A stretch of DNA of 64,000 nt from a virus: IMG/VR virus record IMGVR_UViG_3300050343_000256, positions 20,979-84,978 of that record. The stretch is one strand, 5' to 3'. The translations under genes and the position numbers were made by a program. Within the stretch, counting starts at the first letter, position 1, and each line of letters begins with the position of its first letter. Below the pieces are notes generated by a model, which was not told the origin of the DNA, searched no databases, and saw only the letters and a list, made by a program, of their open reading frames with translations. Of this stretch, positions 3,477-45,796 are shown one piece after another.

Positions 3477-3911
3477 GTGACATGTCACTCATTTTGTATG
3501 CCAGACCAAAGTTGTATCGTCGAATACAGTATTCATAGCACCTGCTACCAGAAACGTCATAAGAAAAGTGATTTTTCGGACTCTTGGTCCCGTGATTGGC
3601 AACCAAAGGAAACCCCTTTAGAGGAACTCAGGGACTGGGTTGGATCTGGTATGGCTTTCATTGGTGCTCGAATGTCCTCACACCATAGGTCCAGCAGTGC
3701 GTTTGAGTGCAGCGATCTTGCAGTTGTTGATATCGACCACGGCTTGTCGATCAAAGAGTTTCTCGAACACCCACTAGCTGCAAGTGCGGCCTGGTCATAT
3801 ACACGAGCTCTCGCCATGGCCAAATGCCGGAAGATCGATTTCGAGTCGTGTTCAGACTGCCGCAGCGAATCCACGATCCTGAAATCTATAAGGGTGTCGT
3901 CACCCTTTTGA
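3477..3911 (+). CDS. primase-polymerase N-terminal part (frameshifted relative to next ORF)
   Basis: DLAVVDID motif; WSYT continues in the -1 frame as TSSRHG..DRFRVVF. Confidence 0.7.
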   Translation: MTCHSFCMPDQSCIVEYSIHSTCYQKRHKKSDFSDSWSRDWQPKETPLEELRDWVGSGMAFIGARMSSHHRSSSAFECSDLAVVDIDHGLSIKEFLEHPLAASAAWSYTRALAMAKCRKIDFESCSDCRSESTILKSIRVSSPF

Positions 3912-5995
3912 TCAGGTCACTCGGCAGTGATAAGAGCTGTTCTGACCCCTGCCGCATCTTCTATGGCAGCGATCCAACAGAGCATATTTTGTGGCAGCCA
4001 GAGGCTCAACTACCTGATTCAATTCTTGACGCTGCGGAAGATCATGCTCGGAAAATGGCAGCGCGAGCAGCTGTCTCTACAAACACGATTGATCAGCAAT
4101 CAATCGACCAAGCCGTCTTCGTTCTCGAGCAAGTCCTCGAGCCGACTGTTGATGGAGACCGAGACAGATTCCGATGCATCACCGCATCAGCAGCAACTGC
4201 TGGCTCAGCACTGTTTCCGGCCTGGAGCGACTGGGCGAGCAGAGGGCATCACGGCAAAGGAAAGAATGCAAAACAATCAACTGAGAAATTCTTCAGAGGA
4301 TTCCGTGGTTCAGGCCTCGGAACTCTGTTTTTCTGGGCATCAAAAGAGGACCCTGACTGGAGATCCAGGCTCCCTGCAGAGCTTCGACGATCCAGTGAAA
4401 GCTCTTCCCAATGCTTTGGGTCGGCACTTGGTTATGACCACAGCGATTTCATTGGAGATCCTGATGATGATTTCTTCTATGAGGGACCAACTCCCAACAC
4501 CGGAACCACTCAAGGTCTCTTTGACGCCGAGCGCCCATGGACCCAAGTGGCAGTCATTGAAAGACCGCCGGTAGAAGCACCGCCTATCAACACGAGTGAT
4601 TCAGATGACGACGATGGAGGCGATGGTTTCGGGGGTGATAACGAACCGCCTACAGAAGAAGGAGTTCCTCGAGTTCGAGCTGGTCGGGGCAGACCTCGCG
4701 GAGATGGTGAGGTTCAAGTTGTCGTCGATATCAAAACGAGACTGCAGCGCCTCTATCCAGGCTTGCGAATGAACTCCATGTCTCAAGACTTGGAATATGG
4801 ATCAGTCGAGAAACCAATCAAAGTTGACGACGCATCAACCGCTTATGTCCGCATCAGCAATGGGGCGGGGCAAGTATTCCCAAAGACGCTTACTTATGAC
4901 ACCGCTTTAATTGTCGGCAGAGAAAATGCCTATCACCCAGTTACCGCCTACCTAGAGAAGTGTGCCCTTAAAGGAGAGACCTGCGGCTATTTCGATCGGA
5001 TCGCATCGGAGCTACTCGGACTCAGGGGCGACGAGCTCACTAATCCAACGATGCCCTGCGGGAATCTGCTCGCCGATGTGATCATGAAACGCTTTCTGGT
5101 GGGAGCCGTTGCTCGAGTCTTGGAACCAGGCTGCACTCATGACTGGATGCCGATTCTCATTGGCTCTCAGAACTCAGGCAAGACAACATTTTTCCAATAC
5201 CTCACTCCTCCTGCTCCTGACTCACCGGGTTCCCACCCTTGGGTAAGCACTGTGCAGCAAGGGATCAATCTCCTGAAGGACCGGCCTCACATCCTCCACG
5301 CAGGCTGGTTGGTTGTTATGGATGAATGCGAGCGCTATTTCCGGCGTCAGTACACCGAGGAGCTCAAAAACATCGTCTCAATCGGAGTCGATCGCAGCGC
5401 AAGAAAATACGAGAACGAACGCAACTTCCTCCGCTCCTTTGTCCTAGCTGGTGCAACGAACTCAACCGATTTCCTGGTCGATCCAACCGGTAATCGCAGG
5501 TTCATGCCAATCGTCGTTGACGGCAAAGTTCCCAGCAAGGAAAACCCCAACATCCGCATCATTGACCTGGACCGTCTCAAAGAAGACCGGGACAAGATCT
5601 GGACGTCTGCGTATCAGGCCTATTTAGATAAACCGGTCCATACCTTCAGCAGCTATGAGCTGTCGTTCATGAAGGAGTATATGGAAACGTTCCAGTCAGA
5701 TAGTCCTCTGGAGTACCAGCTTGACCTAGTTATGACGACCAAGCACTCGGGTGAGCATGGCTCCGACCAAAGGAAGCAGCGGTACTGGCTGATGGCTGAT
5801 CTCTTTGAATGGCTCGAGATCCCTCTCAAAGAGGAACGGTCCATGGCTCGACACATCTCAGACGCCTTGAAGAAGAAGGGATTCACAAAGCGCCGTGTCA
5901 AGGTGCGGGGCAAGGTTCTCAATATGTGGCTGACAAGCGATCCGCTTTACAACGAGAGCCTTGGATCCGCTGCTCCGATGTCTCGAAACTGGTAA
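3824..5995 (+). CDS. primase C-terminal (PriCT-like) plus VapE/VirE-family helicase
   Basis: AWSDWAS...GLGTLFFWA; Walker A GSQNSGKTT; Walker B VVMDE; FVLAGATN; DPTGNRRFMPI. Confidence 0.85.
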   Translation: MPEDRFRVVFRLPQRIHDPEIYKGVVTLLIRSLGSDKSCSDPCRIFYGSDPTEHILWQPEAQLPDSILDAAEDHARKMAARAAVSTNTIDQQSIDQAVFVLEQVLEPTVDGDRDRFRCITASAATAGSALFPAWSDWASRGHHGKGKNAKQSTEKFFRGFRGSGLGTLFFWASKEDPDWRSRLPAELRRSSESSSQCFGSALGYDHSDFIGDPDDDFFYEGPTPNTGTTQGLFDAERPWTQVAVIERPPVEAPPINTSDSDDDDGGDGFGGDNEPPTEEGVPRVRAGRGRPRGDGEVQVVVDIKTRLQRLYPGLRMNSMSQDLEYGSVEKPIKVDDASTAYVRISNGAGQVFPKTLTYDTALIVGRENAYHPVTAYLEKCALKGETCGYFDRIASELLGLRGDELTNPTMPCGNLLADVIMKRFLVGAVARVLEPGCTHDWMPILIGSQNSGKTTFFQYLTPPAPDSPGSHPWVSTVQQGINLLKDRPHILHAGWLVVMDECERYFRRQYTEELKNIVSIGVDRSARKYENERNFLRSFVLAGATNSTDFLVDPTGNRRFMPIVVDGKVPSKENPNIRIIDLDRLKEDRDKIWTSAYQAYLDKPVHTFSSYELSFMKEYMETFQSDSPLEYQLDLVMTTKHSGEHGSDQRKQRYWLMADLFEWLEIPLKEERSMARHISDALKKKGFTKRRVKVRGKVLNMWLTSDPLYNESLGSAAPMSRNW

Positions 5996-20896: not shown

Positions 20897-21123
20897 TATT
20901 TCTTCCCCTCGTACTCCTCTTTAGTCTGCCAATCTTCTTTGGACCACTTACTTAATTTATTGCTAGAAGATTTCTTCCCTTCATACTGACCACCTTCCTG
21001 TTTGTAATATTTAGTGGCAAGTTGCATCGCACGAGCAGAATGCCCACCCATTTTTTTCTGGGCTTTAGCTTTTGCTTTTGCCCAAAGCTCGGGGTTCTTT
21101 TTCTTAGCAGTACCGTCTGACAT
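20896..21123 (-). CDS. basic protein resembling the N-terminal half of DUF5872
   Basis: NPELW...HSARAMQLA...YKQEGG.Y...LSKWSKEDWQTK. Confidence 0.65.
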   Translation of the reverse strand: MSDGTAKKKNPELWAKAKAKAQKKMGGHSARAMQLATKYYKQEGGQYEGKKSSSNKLSKWSKEDWQTKEEYEGKK

Positions 21124-42076: not shown

Positions 42077-42523
42077 TCAATAAACGAAGGAATAAGCAAT
42101 GGTGATGAAGTCGCGGTTAAGCACTTCAAAACCAGCAAACAGCGACCAGATCATGATGATGAATCGTGAGAAATCATCATTGTTGTTCAACAAGATCTGA
42201 GCGTTGTTACCACCAATGCCAACGCCGACTGCCTGAGGACCGAAGAAAATCATCGGAGCAGCAGTGGTCACCGTGTTGGTGATCGATGCGTCGTTAACAG
42301 TTACTTGCAGAGATTTCTCAGCAAGGTTGGTGGATTCAAACCAGCGAACTCCCTCAAATAGGAATCCCGTAGGCATGATTGGCTGTCCAGCCACGAAACC
42401 AGCCTGTCCGTAAGCGGGACCCATGCCATAGAAGAAGTTGGCATTAGGAGCCTGCTCAGGTTGCAGGGGGTTGACCATGCCATTACCCGCGTAGCGAGCA
42501 ATTTCACGGAAGGCGTCATTCTG
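42077..42523 (-). CDS. major capsid protein exon 3 (148 aa, QNDAFREIARY...AYSFVY)
   Basis: in frame with exon 2 after removal of intron 2; GFLFEGVRWFES, FFGPQAVG and DDFSR capsid-like motifs. Confidence 0.9.
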   Translation of the reverse strand, partial: QNDAFREIARYAGNGMVNPLQPEQAPNANFFYGMGPAYGQAGFVAGQPIMPTGFLFEGVRWFESTNLAEKSLQVTVNDASITNTVTTAAPMIFFGPQAVGVGIGGNNAQILLNNNDDFSRFIIMIWSLFAGFEVLNRDFITIAYSFVY

Positions 42524-42779
42524 CAGTGTTGTTATCCCAGAAGCTCTTTATCTCCTGGTTCTCAATCTTTGTCATCGATTGAGCTCAGACTATATCTTCA
42601 TCCCTGTGGGATGGAGGGCACTCGTGGATCCATTACTGAGTTTCCTCTCGGGATCTAGTCGTTGAACCTTCCAGATTGTGATCTGGCTTGGCTGCTGATT
42701 CCCCGAATGTGTGAAGGGGTCCCAGCAATTCACCCTCTGTTCACCCGGCTGTTACCAACCGAGGGCGCAAGAATCGTTT
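42524..42779 (-). ncRNA. group I intron 2 (256 nt, no ORF) in the major capsid gene
   Basis: P AAUUGCUGGG, Q AAUCAGCAG, R GUUCAACGACUA, S AAGAUAUAGUC; exon ends in U (CGU) pairing GCGU/GCGC; terminal G; P10 AUUCU/AGAAU. Confidence 0.93.
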
Positions 42780-43457
42780 ACGCAGGTGCATCATTGCAGT
42801 TGGATCTGCAATGCAACGGTAATAACCATCAGCAAAGGTTGGGACGTTGCGCTTCCGCATGTCCTTAACAACCTGCAGCAAGTCTGTCTTTACGTCAAAC
42901 TTGGCTGATTCACCGGCTGCGTAGTTAAGGAACGGAGCGGCGGATGCCTTGGTTTTGCCGAGTGGGTAGTAATAACCACCAGCATTATCGCTAGCAGGAC
43001 CAGCAGCTTCTGCTTTGAAAAGTTCGTCAGCAAAAACGCGATCACGCCAACGGCGGTAATCGTCCAACAGTGTCAGTGAACCGATTGACTGGTGGAAGAC
43101 GTTCAGGTTGCCGGTATCAAGCAGCAAGCGCTGAGCGGTGAGCAGAGTTTCACGAGCAACCTTAAAGGTCGAAGGTGAAGTTGCATCGGTAGGGTCTGCA
43201 GGTCCGGTGTATTCCTTGAGGTTCACCAGAACCTTGTCTTTAACAATAGAGCGGCTAGATGCTGTGCCCAAAGTTTGATCAGCAGTGCGCTCACGGGAAT
43301 CCTTGTTACCAGGATTGCCCCAGAAGCGGTAGCGATCAAGTTGGACAGTCTGACCGGGTTGCTTCGCGAAATCGTGAACAACCACAGGCTCTACGGCCAT
43401 CTCGATGATATAACCGGGATGTGGGCGGTAGAGCTCAGCACCTAGCAGCTTAGGGAA
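42780..43457 (-). CDS. major capsid protein exon 2 (226 aa, FPKLLGAELY...AMMHLR)
   Basis: open frame between the two introns; HDFAKQPGQTVQLDRY capsid N-terminal pattern. Confidence 0.9.
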
Positions 43458-43667
43458 CGTGTATATCCACTGCTTTCGCAGGGCACCGACTATATCTTCA
43501 CCTTTAAAAGGGCTGGACGCTTAATCCTGTTATTAAGGAGACTTTACTCCTCAGGTAGTCTGTGAACGTTCCTTAGGTGTACCCAAGGCTTCGCTGCTGA
43601 TTGCCATATCTTTCGACTTAGGGTTCCAGCAATTCATCCAGTTTTACAACGACCAGGTGTTTTACCA
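43458..43667 (-). ncRNA. group I intron 1 (210 nt, no ORF) in the major capsid gene
   Basis: P AAUUGCUGGAA, Q AAUCAGCAG, R GUUCACAGACUA, S AAGAUAUAGUC; P1 AACGAU/GUCGUU with U-G at the splice site; P3 CUGGAUG/CGUCCAG; P9 CUGC-GAAA-GCAG; terminal G. Confidence 0.93.
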
Positions 43668-43685
43668 ATCGTTATCAATCCACAT
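43668..43685 (-). CDS. major capsid protein exon 1 (MWIDND)
   Basis: ATG preceded by GAGGA; joins exon 2 in frame after splicing. Confidence 0.85.
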
Positions 43686-43769
43686 GGATCGAAATTCCTC
43701 AGCTGTAAGGGTTTATAAGCACATCGTTGTGCTTCTTATTACTATAAGGGTGTTCTATAGGGAGCAAAT

Positions 43770-44477
43770 TTGGACGTAGTTGATGTCCGTGGATTACTTG
43801 GTCTTCTTTTAACCGATGGGAGTCTTGTCCCATATCGCACTCCTGGCGGTGGTTATATTCAGTTGACTCTTACAACAGGGATCAAGCAGTCGACATTTCT
43901 CGAGGAGAAGGTTGCAGAATTTAAGCAATTTCTACCTTCAAAAGCTGTAATTACTCCCTACAGGAGTTCTCCTAGGGCTAACGGCAAGCAGACGTTGGTT
44001 CTAAGGTTTCGAGTTTCGACCGACAAGCTCCGCCCTGTGTACAACTTGCTTTATCCATGTGGAGAGCGATTAATCAATCAGACGGCTCTCGACTTGTTAG
44101 GAGCAAGCGCTGCAGCATGGTGCTGGGCGCAAGGCGCTCGAGTTCACAAAGACATGAGCTCTGAGCTATCCCGCGTTGGCAATACATACGTAGAAGGCGC
44201 ACGACTGCAAGCATGGTTCGAGATGTTGACCGGCGCAGAGTCAGATCTCAGAGATCACAGGCAGAAGCCACGTCTATATTTCAAGCCGGGAGAGACCAAG
44301 AAGGTGCAAGACGCACTAATAAATTATGCGCCATCAAGTCGACTACATCTATTTACCGGAGTAACCCCAGATGTCAGCTCAATTCGTAGCTCGCGCACTG
44401 AGTTATTGCATGGGAGTGGGATCGATATCTTTAAAAGGGAGACGGCAAAGGCCTTGGCTTCAGATCGTAAGGAGTGA
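43770..44477 (+). CDS. free-standing double-motif LAGLIDADG protein (I-SceI-like), motif 2 degenerate
   Basis: LLGLLLTDGSL motif 1; YNLLYP; AAAWCWAQG in place of LAYWFMDDG. Confidence 0.8.
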   Translation: MDVVDVRGLLGLLLTDGSLVPYRTPGGGYIQLTLTTGIKQSTFLEEKVAEFKQFLPSKAVITPYRSSPRANGKQTLVLRFRVSTDKLRPVYNLLYPCGERLINQTALDLLGASAAAWCWAQGARVHKDMSSELSRVGNTYVEGARLQAWFEMLTGAESDLRDHRQKPRLYFKPGETKKVQDALINYAPSSRLHLFTGVTPDVSSIRSSRTELLHGSGIDIFKRETAKALASDRKE

Positions 44478-44958
44478 GACAGAGCGTCCCTACTTAAGTC
44501 ATCAGCTAAAACAGCTGCGAGAAGCTCACTTAGGTGCGCTGGAATTTGACCTGGACGTACTTCCTTGCGACGGCTTTTACGATGACGTTCGCCTGCGAGT
44601 CAGGAGTGACGAGCTATACCGAGCCTATGAATTGATGTACCCACGAGACAAGAAAGTGGTAACGCCTCAAATTGTCGGATTAACCGGAATCGTAGGGATG
44701 TCAGCGCTGTGGTCAGACAGAGGCAGGATCGTCGGTAAAACAGCAAAGATCAGATCACGACTAACGCCAGAAGCGAACATAGCTTTGGTCGATTGGTGCA
44801 ATAGCCACGGCTTCGAGAGCAAACACATCGCAAGACTGGACCGCAGCTACGGAGTCCAGTTCACTCCAGACGCAACTCGGAAATTTATTAGCGCCATACG
44901 GCCACACACGCACAAGATCATGAGAAAGACTTTTAAACAGGCTTCTTCTCGTCGATAA
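44371..44958 (+). CDS. second LAGLIDADG-like protein, degenerate
   Basis: ALSYCMGVGSI motif 1 lacks the acidic residue; YELMYPRDKKVV; MSALWSDRG motif 2; FISAIRPH. Confidence 0.7.
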   Translation: MSAQFVARALSYCMGVGSISLKGRRQRPWLQIVRSETERPYLSHQLKQLREAHLGALEFDLDVLPCDGFYDDVRLRVRSDELYRAYELMYPRDKKVVTPQIVGLTGIVGMSALWSDRGRIVGKTAKIRSRLTPEANIALVDWCNSHGFESKHIARLDRSYGVQFTPDATRKFISAIRPHTHKIMRKTFKQASSRR

Positions 44959-45112
44959 GATAAACGGGCTCCGAAGAAGAACTACGTCAGGAGCTCATAC
45001 ATGACATTCCAGGAGTTCGGGTTTTTGTAGTTTCAACGGACTGGCAACTGATCTGCCCCGCGTTCGGCCAATGTGGGGGTGGCACCTGGAAGATTTCTCT
45101 TACTTTTTGCGC

Positions 45113-45307
45113 ATGACTGACAGCCAAGAATGCACCGATGGCTTCTGCCCAGCGACAAGGCCCGTCGCAGAGAAGGATCCTAAGGATGTCTTTTTTCAGC
45201 CGATCACGGAAGAAAAAGCAAAGTCTGAGCCGAACATGCATGAAAAATTTATTCAGTTTTGCGACGACAATCCCAATGATGTCGAATGCAGGCTGTTTGA
45301 CGTATAG
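45113..45307 (+). CDS. cp12: CP12-like protein (C-terminal domain)
   Basis: FIQFCDDNPNDVECRLFDV matches the CP12 C-terminal Cx8C; start placed at ATG 45113. Confidence 0.75.
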   Translation: MTDSQECTDGFCPATRPVAEKDPKDVFFQPITEEKAKSEPNMHEKFIQFCDDNPNDVECRLFDV

Positions 45308-45355
45308 TCCTTTTTTGTTTTTCTTAGACTGACGCAATAACTTAGTTGCGGCAGA

Positions 45356-45796
45356 ATGGCTGTCTTTAATAAACTCAATGGCTTTGTCGAGCACTTGAGT
45401 GAGGGAGTTCACAACCTCGGCAGCGATCAACTCGTGCTCGCACTGAGTAATGTTGCCCCAGCTTCAGAGACAACTCCACCTTCATCTACTACCGCTGGCT
45501 GTGTCTTAGCAAACGTCACTGAAATCAGCTACGTCGGACTCAGCTCACGAGATCTAACAACGACAAGCTCAGCTCAGTCATCAGGTACTTATCGGCTGGT
45601 ACTTGACGATCTAACTCTTAGCTCCACGGGCACTGTTGGACCTTTCCGGTACATCTATCTCTACAACACCACGCCAGTCAGTCCAGCAGACCCGCTGATT
45701 GGCTTTTTCGATTACGGAGCAAACCTCACCCTTAATACGGGTGAGAGCTTGACAATCGACTTTGACCAAGCGTCAGGCGCAATCACTCTGGGTTGA
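45356..45796 (+). CDS. phage tail-associated structural protein
   Basis: GPFRYIYLYN...LIGFFDYG..LTL..GES.TIDF. Confidence 0.7.
   Translation: MAVFNKLNGFVEHLSEGVHNLGSDQLVLALSNVAPASETTPPSSTTAGCVLANVTEISYVGLSSRDLTTTSSAQSSGTYRLVLDDLTLSSTGTVGPFRYIYLYNTTPVSPADPLIGFFDYGANLTLNTGESLTIDFDQASGAITLG

Follow-up and report, generated by a model that had tools for sequence, protein, structure and literature searches.

The stretch of DNA analysed here, called the window below, consists of 64,000 nucleotides (nt), positions 20,979 to 84,978 of the IMG/VR virus record IMGVR_UViG_3300050343_000256, a record of 84,978 bases with terminal repeats. Two open reading frames (ORFs) on its plus strand are the subject of this study: ORF1, of 235 amino acids (43770..44477), and ORF2, of 195 amino acids (44371..44958). 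Both encode LAGLIDADG proteins, ORF1 of the I-SceI type and ORF2 a paralogue of it, and they overlap by 107 nt (44371..44477) that are coding in two frames, ORF2 being in the +1 frame. A divergent intergenic region of 84 bp (43686..43769), measured from the capsid ATG, whose place is fixed by the relative L004, to the TTG of ORF1, separates the pair from the capsid gene, which lies on the minus strand and is split in the window by two group I introns. Judging from the alignments, each protein lacks one catalytic acid: ORF1 the second, and ORF2 the first.

The TTG that opens ORF1 is the start codon in 76 of 79 orthologues, the other 3 having GTG, and a Shine-Dalgarno-like GGGAG lies 5 nt upstream of it (43760..43764, plus strand). 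A first-pass annotation, made by a model from the letters of the sequence, had read the two motifs of the protein as GLLLTDG and WCWAQG. Both are indeed present: the motif-1 acid, Asp16 (codon GAT, 43815..43817), is retained, and the catalytic position of motif 2 is occupied by Gln121 (codon CAA, 44130..44132). These positions were compared in a family of 121 proteins, namely that of the window and the best 120 of 256 matches. Asp16, at the end of helix 1, is present in all 121, as it is in all 68 unique locus sequences; position 121, at the end of helix 2, is Glu in 114 of the proteins and Gln in 7, the corresponding counts in the locus sequences being 63 and 5. Among the 121 proteins, Gln121 occurs only in the window and in its six closest relatives (P0001-P0006, 76-94% identity). 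The same clade carries a second change from Glu to Gln, at position 40 (codon CAG, 43887..43889): Gln is found there in all 7 of its members, and Glu in 105 of the 114 other proteins. The only further changes fixed in the clade are T57S, T66S and T103N, and no new acidic residue appears. The ORF1 of the window thus has no acidic residue at the end of one LAGLIDADG helix, where a competent endonuclease would have one.

ORF2 starts with ATG, and 9 nt upstream of it a Shine-Dalgarno-like GGAG (44358..44361, plus strand), located within ORF1, falls on the conserved Gly197 and Glu/Asp198 codons of the ORF1 family. Its motifs, SYCMGVG and LWSDRG, are also as first read. The catalytic position of motif 1 is occupied by Val16 (codon GTG, 44416..44418), which follows helix 1 in the same x-Gly-Ser register as in ORF1, so that the end of this helix carries no acid either. 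In 65 unique virus-locus sequences the residue at position 16 is K (32), V (14), R (7), Q (3), T (3), A (2), L (2), N (1) or P (1), and never D or E. As for motif 2, the profile alignment pairs Asp116 of ORF2 (codon GAC, 44716..44718) with residue 121 of ORF1, and the helix and strand registers of the two structural models agree: Asp116 ends a helix spanning residues 99-117, before a strand at 118-121, and residue 121 of ORF1 is placed likewise. Consequently, the motif-2 acid is kept in ORF2. Asp116 is found in 65 of 65 unique virus-locus sequences and in 40 of 40 protein-database sequences covering the column; Gly118 is invariant in the former set. The claim that both proteins have lost catalytic acids by erosion of their active sites must therefore be divided: one acid is indeed gone from each protein, but ORF2 has a proper acid in motif 2; and the erosion is family-wide in ORF2 (0 of 65 acidic), whereas in ORF1 it is a recent event of one sub-lineage (7 of 121), the family norm being Asp plus Glu.

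The assignment of both proteins to the same fold has several sources. The PF03161 (LAGLIDADG_2) profile matches ORF1 with 36.4 bits, for a cut-off of 25. The ORF2 of the window has no Pfam match of its own; PF03161 is matched by 30 of 54 aligned members of its family, with an E of 0.01 or better, and the profile-profile alignment (hhalign) of ORF2 with the ORF1 family has a probability of 96%. Structure prediction, which had been proposed as a check in the first-pass annotation, gives a LAGLIDADG fold for each protein, with a predicted local distance difference test score (pLDDT) of 70.9 for ORF1 and 94.4 for ORF2. The top Foldseek matches of both models are I-WcaI (6x1j) and I-SceI (1r7m), the order of helices and strands is in both cases that of the I-SceI type, and both models end with the LAGLIDADG fold. 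A prediction of the ORF1-ORF2 complex, run without controls, scored 0.00 against a mark of 0.32, a value that weighs neither way on their binding. Searches of the PDB sequences with ORF1, ORF2 and their profiles returned no LAGLIDADG entry, only chance matches above E 0.8, and the link to solved enzymes thus rests on the comparison of folds. Within ORF1, the mean column identity is 0.89 for the strands of the N-domain, 0.91 for the LAGLIDADG helices and 0.57 for the strands of the C-domain; the conservation of the N-domain strands suggests a conserved DNA half-site.

Scanning IMG/VR with the ORF1 alignment confirmed 123 stretches, and the 80 best among them were analysed further. The two genes and their overlap recur in 79 of these 80 loci, the last one being cut by a contig end, so that the arrangement is no accident. 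ORF2 starts 601 or 604 nt past the start of ORF1 in all 75 uncut cases, with overlaps of 80-161 nt. We set aside a frameshift fusion of the two frames, given that ORF2 has its own ATG in 75 of 75 copies, and the GGAG 9 nt upstream. Excluding the copies cut by contig ends and including the window, the frame is intact in 79 of 79 copies of ORF1 and in 75 of 75 copies of ORF2. Within the Gln121 clade, the ratio of nonsynonymous to synonymous rates (dN/dS) of ORF1, with the overlap excluded, is 0.030-0.068 in the 8 of 10 pairs for which it is computable, synonymous sites being near saturation in the pairs that involve the window. For close pairs (proportion of synonymous differences, pS, below 0.5), the corresponding ratio of proportions, pN/pS, is 0.05-0.16 in ORF1 and 0.07-0.09 in ORF2. 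Across the first 15 codons of ORF2, synonymous divergence is depressed in both frames. The median dN/dS values of E-type pairs (0.164 for ORF1, 0.49 for ORF2) have saturated pairs mixed in, and were left unused. Both genes are under strong purifying selection.

These measures bear directly on one account of the missing acids, in which the pair, once fixed as selfish homing-endonuclease genes, has been decaying neutrally and has the absent acids as its first lesions. A decaying homing endonuclease is expected to lose its catalytic residues first, and the change from Glu121 to Gln is both recent and limited to one clade. However, no frameshift or stop is found in the 79 copies of ORF1 and 75 of ORF2, and dN/dS stays at 0.03-0.07 after the Gln change. 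Moreover, the members of the ORF2 family, though they have diverged to about 40% identity, all lack the acid, and ORF2 is conserved all the same: searched against 1.84 billion representatives, its profile matches 48 clusters (50% identity) with an E no higher than 1e-30. Barring a biased sampling of intact copies, neutral decay is ruled out by the measures of selection, and we give it next to no credence. It was also the outcome among homologues that the first-pass annotation had named as fatal to a retained role, and it is not what the ratios and the intact copies display. Because selection keeps the frames and there is no decay, the pair is likely, in the lineage of the window, to have a role independent of canonical double-strand cleavage, as proposed there.

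The pair is, furthermore, a stable part of its genomes. The capsid gene is divergent from it in 77 of the 80 loci found with ORF1, the other 3 being cut at a contig end; the distance between the two starts is about 104-114 nt in relatives, more where an insertion intervenes, and 84 bp in the window. As a rule, the tandem is thus found some 85-110 bp upstream of the capsid gene, with introns in that gene or without. In a second scan, made with the capsid protein and for which 80 loci were again kept, 48 loci have a capsid identity of at least 87%: both genes are present in 41 of them, ORF1 up to the contig end in 2, and in the remaining 5 the sequence upstream is shorter than 140 nt. None of the 32 loci with a capsid identity of at most 86% has the pair, and for 22 of them at least 1.3 kb upstream is available. 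Since presence and absence follow the boundary between 87% and 86% capsid identity, the pair is a fixed trait of one clade of S-EIV1-like marine phages and does not come and go as a mobile gene would. In this clade it starts a rightward block of structural genes; the other clade and S-EIVl do not have that block upstream of their capsid gene. Close relatives do not differ in having the pair, as they would with a mobile gene; what is observed is vertical inheritance under purifying selection, as for regulators of the WhiA/DUF199 type. In an annotated phage collection, tblastn found no relative of ORF1 or ORF2, and a DNA comparison no near-identical sequence, only the capsid gene having a named relative there, S-EIVl; and PHROGs gave chance-level matches only for both proteins. 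ORF2 matches in the genomes of 185,579 species come down to three places (L163-L165), all on contigs of metagenome-assembled genomes, labelled Phycisphaerae and Methanobacteriota, which resemble phage contigs binned wrongly.

What such proteins might do can be approached from studied relatives. The excerpts of PMC3017599 used here give one catalytic acid per LAGLIDADG helix and a metal ion common to both sites; those of PMC3384342 state that the LAGLIDADG acids are essential for I-DmoI catalysis, and that WhiA, with Arg and Gly at the acid positions, does not digest DNA. Normal double-strand cuts by ORF2, and by the ORF1 of the window's clade, are thus unlikely because one essential acid is missing. 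Both proteins being conserved despite this predicted loss of cleavage, a binding or nicking function would have been retained. The explanation that we favour, and in which we have about even confidence, is that of a resident homing-endonuclease cassette whose ORF2 long ago, and ORF1 recently, became a DNA-binding protein that either does not cleave or nicks a single strand. ORF1 and ORF2 are paralogous, free-standing I-SceI-type proteins, in overlapping tandem and vertically inherited in the clade. ORF1, which in most genomes has both acids (Asp16 and Glu121) and a weak TTG start, is presumably the endonuclease of the pair; ORF2 alone would be no normal double-strand cutter, but most likely a sequence-specific DNA binder, and at most a nickase. 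In the sub-lineage of the window, where Glu121 and Glu40 of ORF1 have both been replaced by Gln under continuing strong purifying selection, the pair would act by binding or nicking DNA and not by double-strand cleavage. The cassette looks like one that is partway through domestication. The data show the fold, the states of the residues, the fixation in the clade, the selection, the independence from introns and the breakpoints at the edges of the cassette; that cleavage has been lost, that the ligand is DNA and not RNA, and that the pair acts on nearby DNA, at the 5' end of the capsid gene or at the divergent promoter, is what we infer.

Comparison with the closest relatives shows where the cassette begins and ends. 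In 90-nt bins, a diverged segment made of ORF1, ORF2 and about 340 nt downstream (43800..45299, plus strand) has 57-89% identity to L002, L003, L004 and L007. Over the tail-side gene, the exons of the capsid gene and the intergenic region, the window is mostly 91-100% identical to these four. A few bins on the capsid side are lower, the lowest (68%) being where the L002 contig ends, and identity is back to 96-99% at 45299-45388. Likewise, pS relative to the closest relatives is 0.65-0.97 in ORF1 and ORF2, and 0.05-0.23 in the capsid exons, leaving out the cell for exon 2 of L003 (pN 0.73), an artefact of an intron-split match. The distances of ORF1 and ORF2 correlate (Spearman 0.55), no pair of genomes being close in one and far in the other, and in 18 pairs of genomes the capsid proteins differ by less than 2% and ORF1 by more than 15%. 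Because identity and pS shift there, recombination breakpoints are placed at the borders of the cassette. They fit an exchange stimulated by a nuclease and, equally, a capsid block that intron homing has recently spread.

The spacer past ORF2 (44959-45355, about 400 nt) is, as far as about 45299, diverged between close relatives to the same degree as ORF1 and ORF2. On the minus strand it has an ORF of 147 amino acids (44987-45430), with partial matches in relatives; at 44966-44996, a match to the RNA family CyVA-1 stays below the threshold (20.7 bits versus 41.4).

The mosaic pattern is one of the reasons to consider that the pair may still be a working nuclease, either because Gln121 is tolerated or compensated, or because the proteins are strand-specific nickases, one using the Asp16 site of ORF1 and the other the Asp116 site of ORF2. 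Acting jointly or each alone, they would nick or cut a target near the capsid gene, driving recombination between co-infecting relatives. The retained acids are complementary and invariant, the two genes are always inherited together, the drop in identity to the closest relatives, from mostly 91-100% to 57-89%, coincides exactly with the cassette and ends at 45299, where identity is 96-99%, and the 18 pairs of genomes have nearly the same capsid protein with different ORF1s. In the excerpts at hand, nuclease genes are described as often near or inside essential phage genes, flanking exchanged blocks (PMC10448857), and monomeric LAGLIDADG enzymes as having a separate site for each strand and being convertible to nickases (PMC3017599). 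However, the engineered nickases in the latter excerpts were obtained by altering peripheral Lys/Gln residues or the domain interface, with no removal of a LAGLIDADG acid described in them, and since the metal ion is common to both sites, the loss of one acid may abolish both cuts (PMC3017599). In the clade of the window, furthermore, Glu40 and Glu121 have both become Gln, an uncharged isostere, which resembles a coordinated removal of charge, and no newly fixed acidic residue makes up for it. We regard this alternative as possible, though clearly on the improbable side.

We now turn to the intergenic region. In the alignment of 55 unique regions upstream of ORF1, the motifs TACTATA and TAGGGA are conserved. 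A hairpin, AAGCACA...TGTGCTT (43717-43734), keeps its pairing through compensating changes in 55 unique relatives. This hairpin may belong to the 5' leader of the capsid messenger RNA (mRNA), and the adjacent TACTATA and TAGGGA may be overlapping divergent -10 boxes. A sigma-70 promoter scan of 43400-45500 returned 0 sites, and a search for repeats gave no convincing operator or target-like repeat.

It is in this region that dedicated transcription regulators would act, if the pair controlled the divergent promoters of the capsid gene and of its own operon and had no nuclease role in any lineage. The fixed position of the pair, 84 bp from the capsid start in the window, and the two conserved motifs are what one would expect of such regulators. 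There are precedents in the excerpts of PMC3384342, in which I-TevI is also an autorepressor and WhiA a regulator derived from a LAGLIDADG protein; and the fold comparison of ORF2 lists complexes of WhiA at ranks 6 and 32. But a pure regulator has no need of Asp16 and Glu121, which are both present in 114 of 121 ORF1 proteins, nor of the Asp116 present in all ORF2 proteins. The Pfam search gave no helix-turn-helix domain in ORF1 or ORF2 at an E of 1 or better, and the search for an operator, repeated or palindromic, gave none: the only dyad is the hairpin above, whose changes compensate each other as in RNA. Regulation as the sole role of the pair therefore seems to us unlikely.

The favoured explanation, that of a cassette of DNA-binding or nicking proteins, must also be confronted with the observations that weigh against it. 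The confidence of the ORF1 model is moderate (pLDDT 70.9), no binding site was found in the intergenic region, and the contrast between cassette and flanks can equally be explained by intron homing of the capsid block, without any action of ORF1 or ORF2. A Gln, or a lone Asp, might still allow slow cutting or nicking. Each protein has one invariant acid (Asp16 in 121 of 121, Asp116 in 65 of 65), and ORF2 has in addition Glu36 in 40 of 40 sequences and Glu38 or Asp38 in 40 of 40, after strand 2. Metal-dependent chemistry explains the invariant acids more easily than binding only, since Asp16 and Asp116 are never lost.

A different division of labour would make of the pair a two-part system for conflicts between related phages: a site-specific endonuclease, ORF1, made at a low level from its TTG start, and a crippled decoy, ORF2, protecting or regulating the phage's own copy. 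ORF2, translated from an ATG inside ORF1, would occupy the same DNA site or a neighbouring one, at the boundary between the capsid and fibre modules. In a variant suited to the lineage of the window, the proteins would be two complementary half-dead enzymes, each in charge of one strand. We put this forward as a speculation of low probability.

The capsid gene itself was reconstructed, on the minus strand, by comparison with the intron-free relative L004. Exon 1 (43668..43685) encodes MWIDND, and the corresponding junction is unbroken in L004, which reads ATG TGG ATT GAT AAT GAT TTT CCC AAG. It is followed by group I intron 1, of 210 nt and without an ORF (43458..43667; Rfam RF00028, 86.2 bits, ends from L004), for which our own reading of the sequence gives a P1 helix AUAACGAU/GUCGUUGU with a U-G pair at the splice site. 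Exon 2 (42780..43457) has 77% amino acid identity to Synechococcus phage S-EIVl and matches phrog_1357, major head protein. Then come group I intron 2, of 256 nt and again without an ORF (42524..42779; RF00028, 66.8 bits, ends from L004), whose removal gives MMHLR-QNDAF, and exon 3, which includes the stop codon (42077..42523). The Rfam match of intron 1 overruns by 29 nt upstream, into exon 1 and the leader (43667-43696), and an exon 1 drawn from the Rfam 5' end, with a GTG at 43722, was ruled out, since L004 puts the start at 43685. The hairpin UCGAUCCA/UGGAUUGA around the capsid ATG, which Rfam takes as the first hairpin of intron 1, is also present in the intron-free L004; for this reason, we assign it to the mRNA leader, where it may affect the start of translation.

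With two introns devoid of ORFs in the adjacent gene, it is natural to ask whether the pair are their maturases, a role that the first-pass annotation had listed. The pair does adjoin an intron-split gene in the window, LAGLIDADG maturases without cleavage are known (excerpts of PMC3384342), and the bI3 maturase (2ab5) comes up in the fold comparison of both proteins, ranking 6th for ORF1 and 42nd for ORF2. However, ORF1 and ORF2 lie outside both introns and on the opposite strand. The capsid gene is uninterrupted in 60 of the 77 pair-bearing loci, and intron-free in 5 of the 7 Gln-type loci; the residue states of ORF1 do not depend on the presence of an intron; and the introns of relatives are at about a dozen sites in different genomes, the pair being unchanged throughout. 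The pair is independent of the introns, and the maturase role, very improbable in our estimate, is not upheld.

The capsid gene of the clade is a hotspot of insertions: 17 of the 77 loci have 1-4 of them, each of about 250-1220 nt, after residues 36, 40, 48/50, 62, 107/108, 132, 138/139, 233/235, 240, 283 and 291, with an additional site after residue 6, seen in the window. Some of these insertions encode LAGLIDADG_2 proteins on the sense strand (L063, L054, L060), and others LAGLIDADG_3 proteins on the antisense strand (L053, L060), one of which has a weak HTH_23 match. In L033, L057 and L063, ORF1 and the capsid gene are separated by an insertion of about 800 nt with a gene, on the strand of ORF1, for an endonuclease of 174 amino acids, in which a Pfam run on L063 identified HNH_3 and helix-turn-helix domains; from the equal spacing between ORF1 and the capsid gene, L068 and L072 probably have the HNH_3 insertion as well.

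Some information on RNA comes from public runs. The first 210 letters of a metatranscriptome contig of 240 letters and depth 33, X16, are the span of intron 1 with one ambiguous base, placed at 43457-43666, the other 30 letters being unplaced. An assembler run with k=31 leaves an overhang of 30 letters on a circle, and contig X16 may be the excised and possibly circular RNA of intron 1. The contigs of the public RNA runs report no spliced joint. Those of three RNA libraries cover the capsid exons and not 43710-45400, a range that a DNA run covers in full, but contigs of this kind cannot show absence, and nothing follows from them for the expression of ORF1 or ORF2. In the GenBank record of S-EIVl (L001, KJ410740), the capsid ORF, of 383 amino acids at 3983-5134, is not annotated as capsid: only its last 471 nt are called as a gene, and the region 3908-5134 also has an opposite-strand ORF of 381 amino acids, partly annotated.

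LAGLIDADG genes are usually viewed as selfish passengers of introns and inteins in organelles and archaea, whose invasion is followed by decay and loss. In the present case, a tandem LAGLIDADG pair is a fixed and selected component of a widespread group of marine phages, and a single gene family offers a natural series, from intact enzyme to half-site protein, that could show a homing endonuclease turning into a DNA-binding or nicking protein. Natural scaffolds with a single acid may help in the making of nickases. The locus is also well suited to the study of the ways in which an essential phage gene is shaped by mobile introns, by free-standing nucleases and by recombination, because the capsid gene holds introns and endonuclease genes at about a dozen sites in relatives. 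If true, the conjecture of a nuclease with its decoy, or of complementary half-dead enzymes, would add a natural LAGLIDADG arrangement not yet described. A literature search, limited to titles and the openings of abstracts, returned no report of a LAGLIDADG pair or of capsid introns for S-EIV1-like phages.

Several known systems resemble parts of this locus. Maturases of the bI3 type have the same fold and lost or reduced cleavage. They are encoded within the intron that they help, whereas the phage pair lies outside the introns, on the other strand, and 60 of the 77 loci that carry it have no capsid intron, so that neither an intronic location nor co-occurrence with introns is found. In collaborative homing, the free-standing F-CphI is said to act with a cyanophage psbA intron, and MobE, reportedly, with an nrdB intron. 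The window similarly has an endonuclease-type gene that adjoins a gene with ORF-less group I introns, one of them, after capsid codon 6, about 100 bp from the start of ORF1. In contrast, the presence of the pair is independent of the introns, 60 of 77 genomes combining it with an intron-free allele; an acid of ORF1 is missing; and the nuclease family is another one.

The closest structural relatives are I-SceI and I-WcaI. LAGLIDADG homing endonucleases make site-specific double-strand cuts with 4-base 3' overhangs. Both phage proteins have the two-domain fold of these enzymes, with TM-scores of 0.65-0.77, a similar size and two LAGLIDADG helices, and in most ORF1 orthologues each helix ends with an acid. 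In sequence, they are only 11-14% identical to the solved I-SceI-type enzymes. Unlike them, the phage pair is free-standing, not in an organellar intron, and fixed in its clade, not sporadic; the ORF1 of the window has Gln in place of the second acid, and no member of the ORF2 family has the first. WhiA/DUF199 proteins also combine a LAGLIDADG fold, vertical inheritance and an incomplete catalytic pair. The Thermotoga maritima WhiA has Arg at an acid position (excerpts of PMC3384342), and 39 of 65 ORF2 sequences have Lys or Arg at theirs; but ORF1 and ORF2 each keep one invariant acid, where a protein of the WhiA type would have neither, and have no extra domain such as the helix-turn-helix domain that also defines that type. 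Finally, the HEG (homing-endonuclease gene) islands of Barth et al. 2023 (PMC10448857), in the excerpts used here, share with our locus a nuclease-type gene beside an essential gene and a sharp change of identity at the border. Those islands contain other families of nucleases with variable presence, whereas the phage pair is fixed and partly inactivated.

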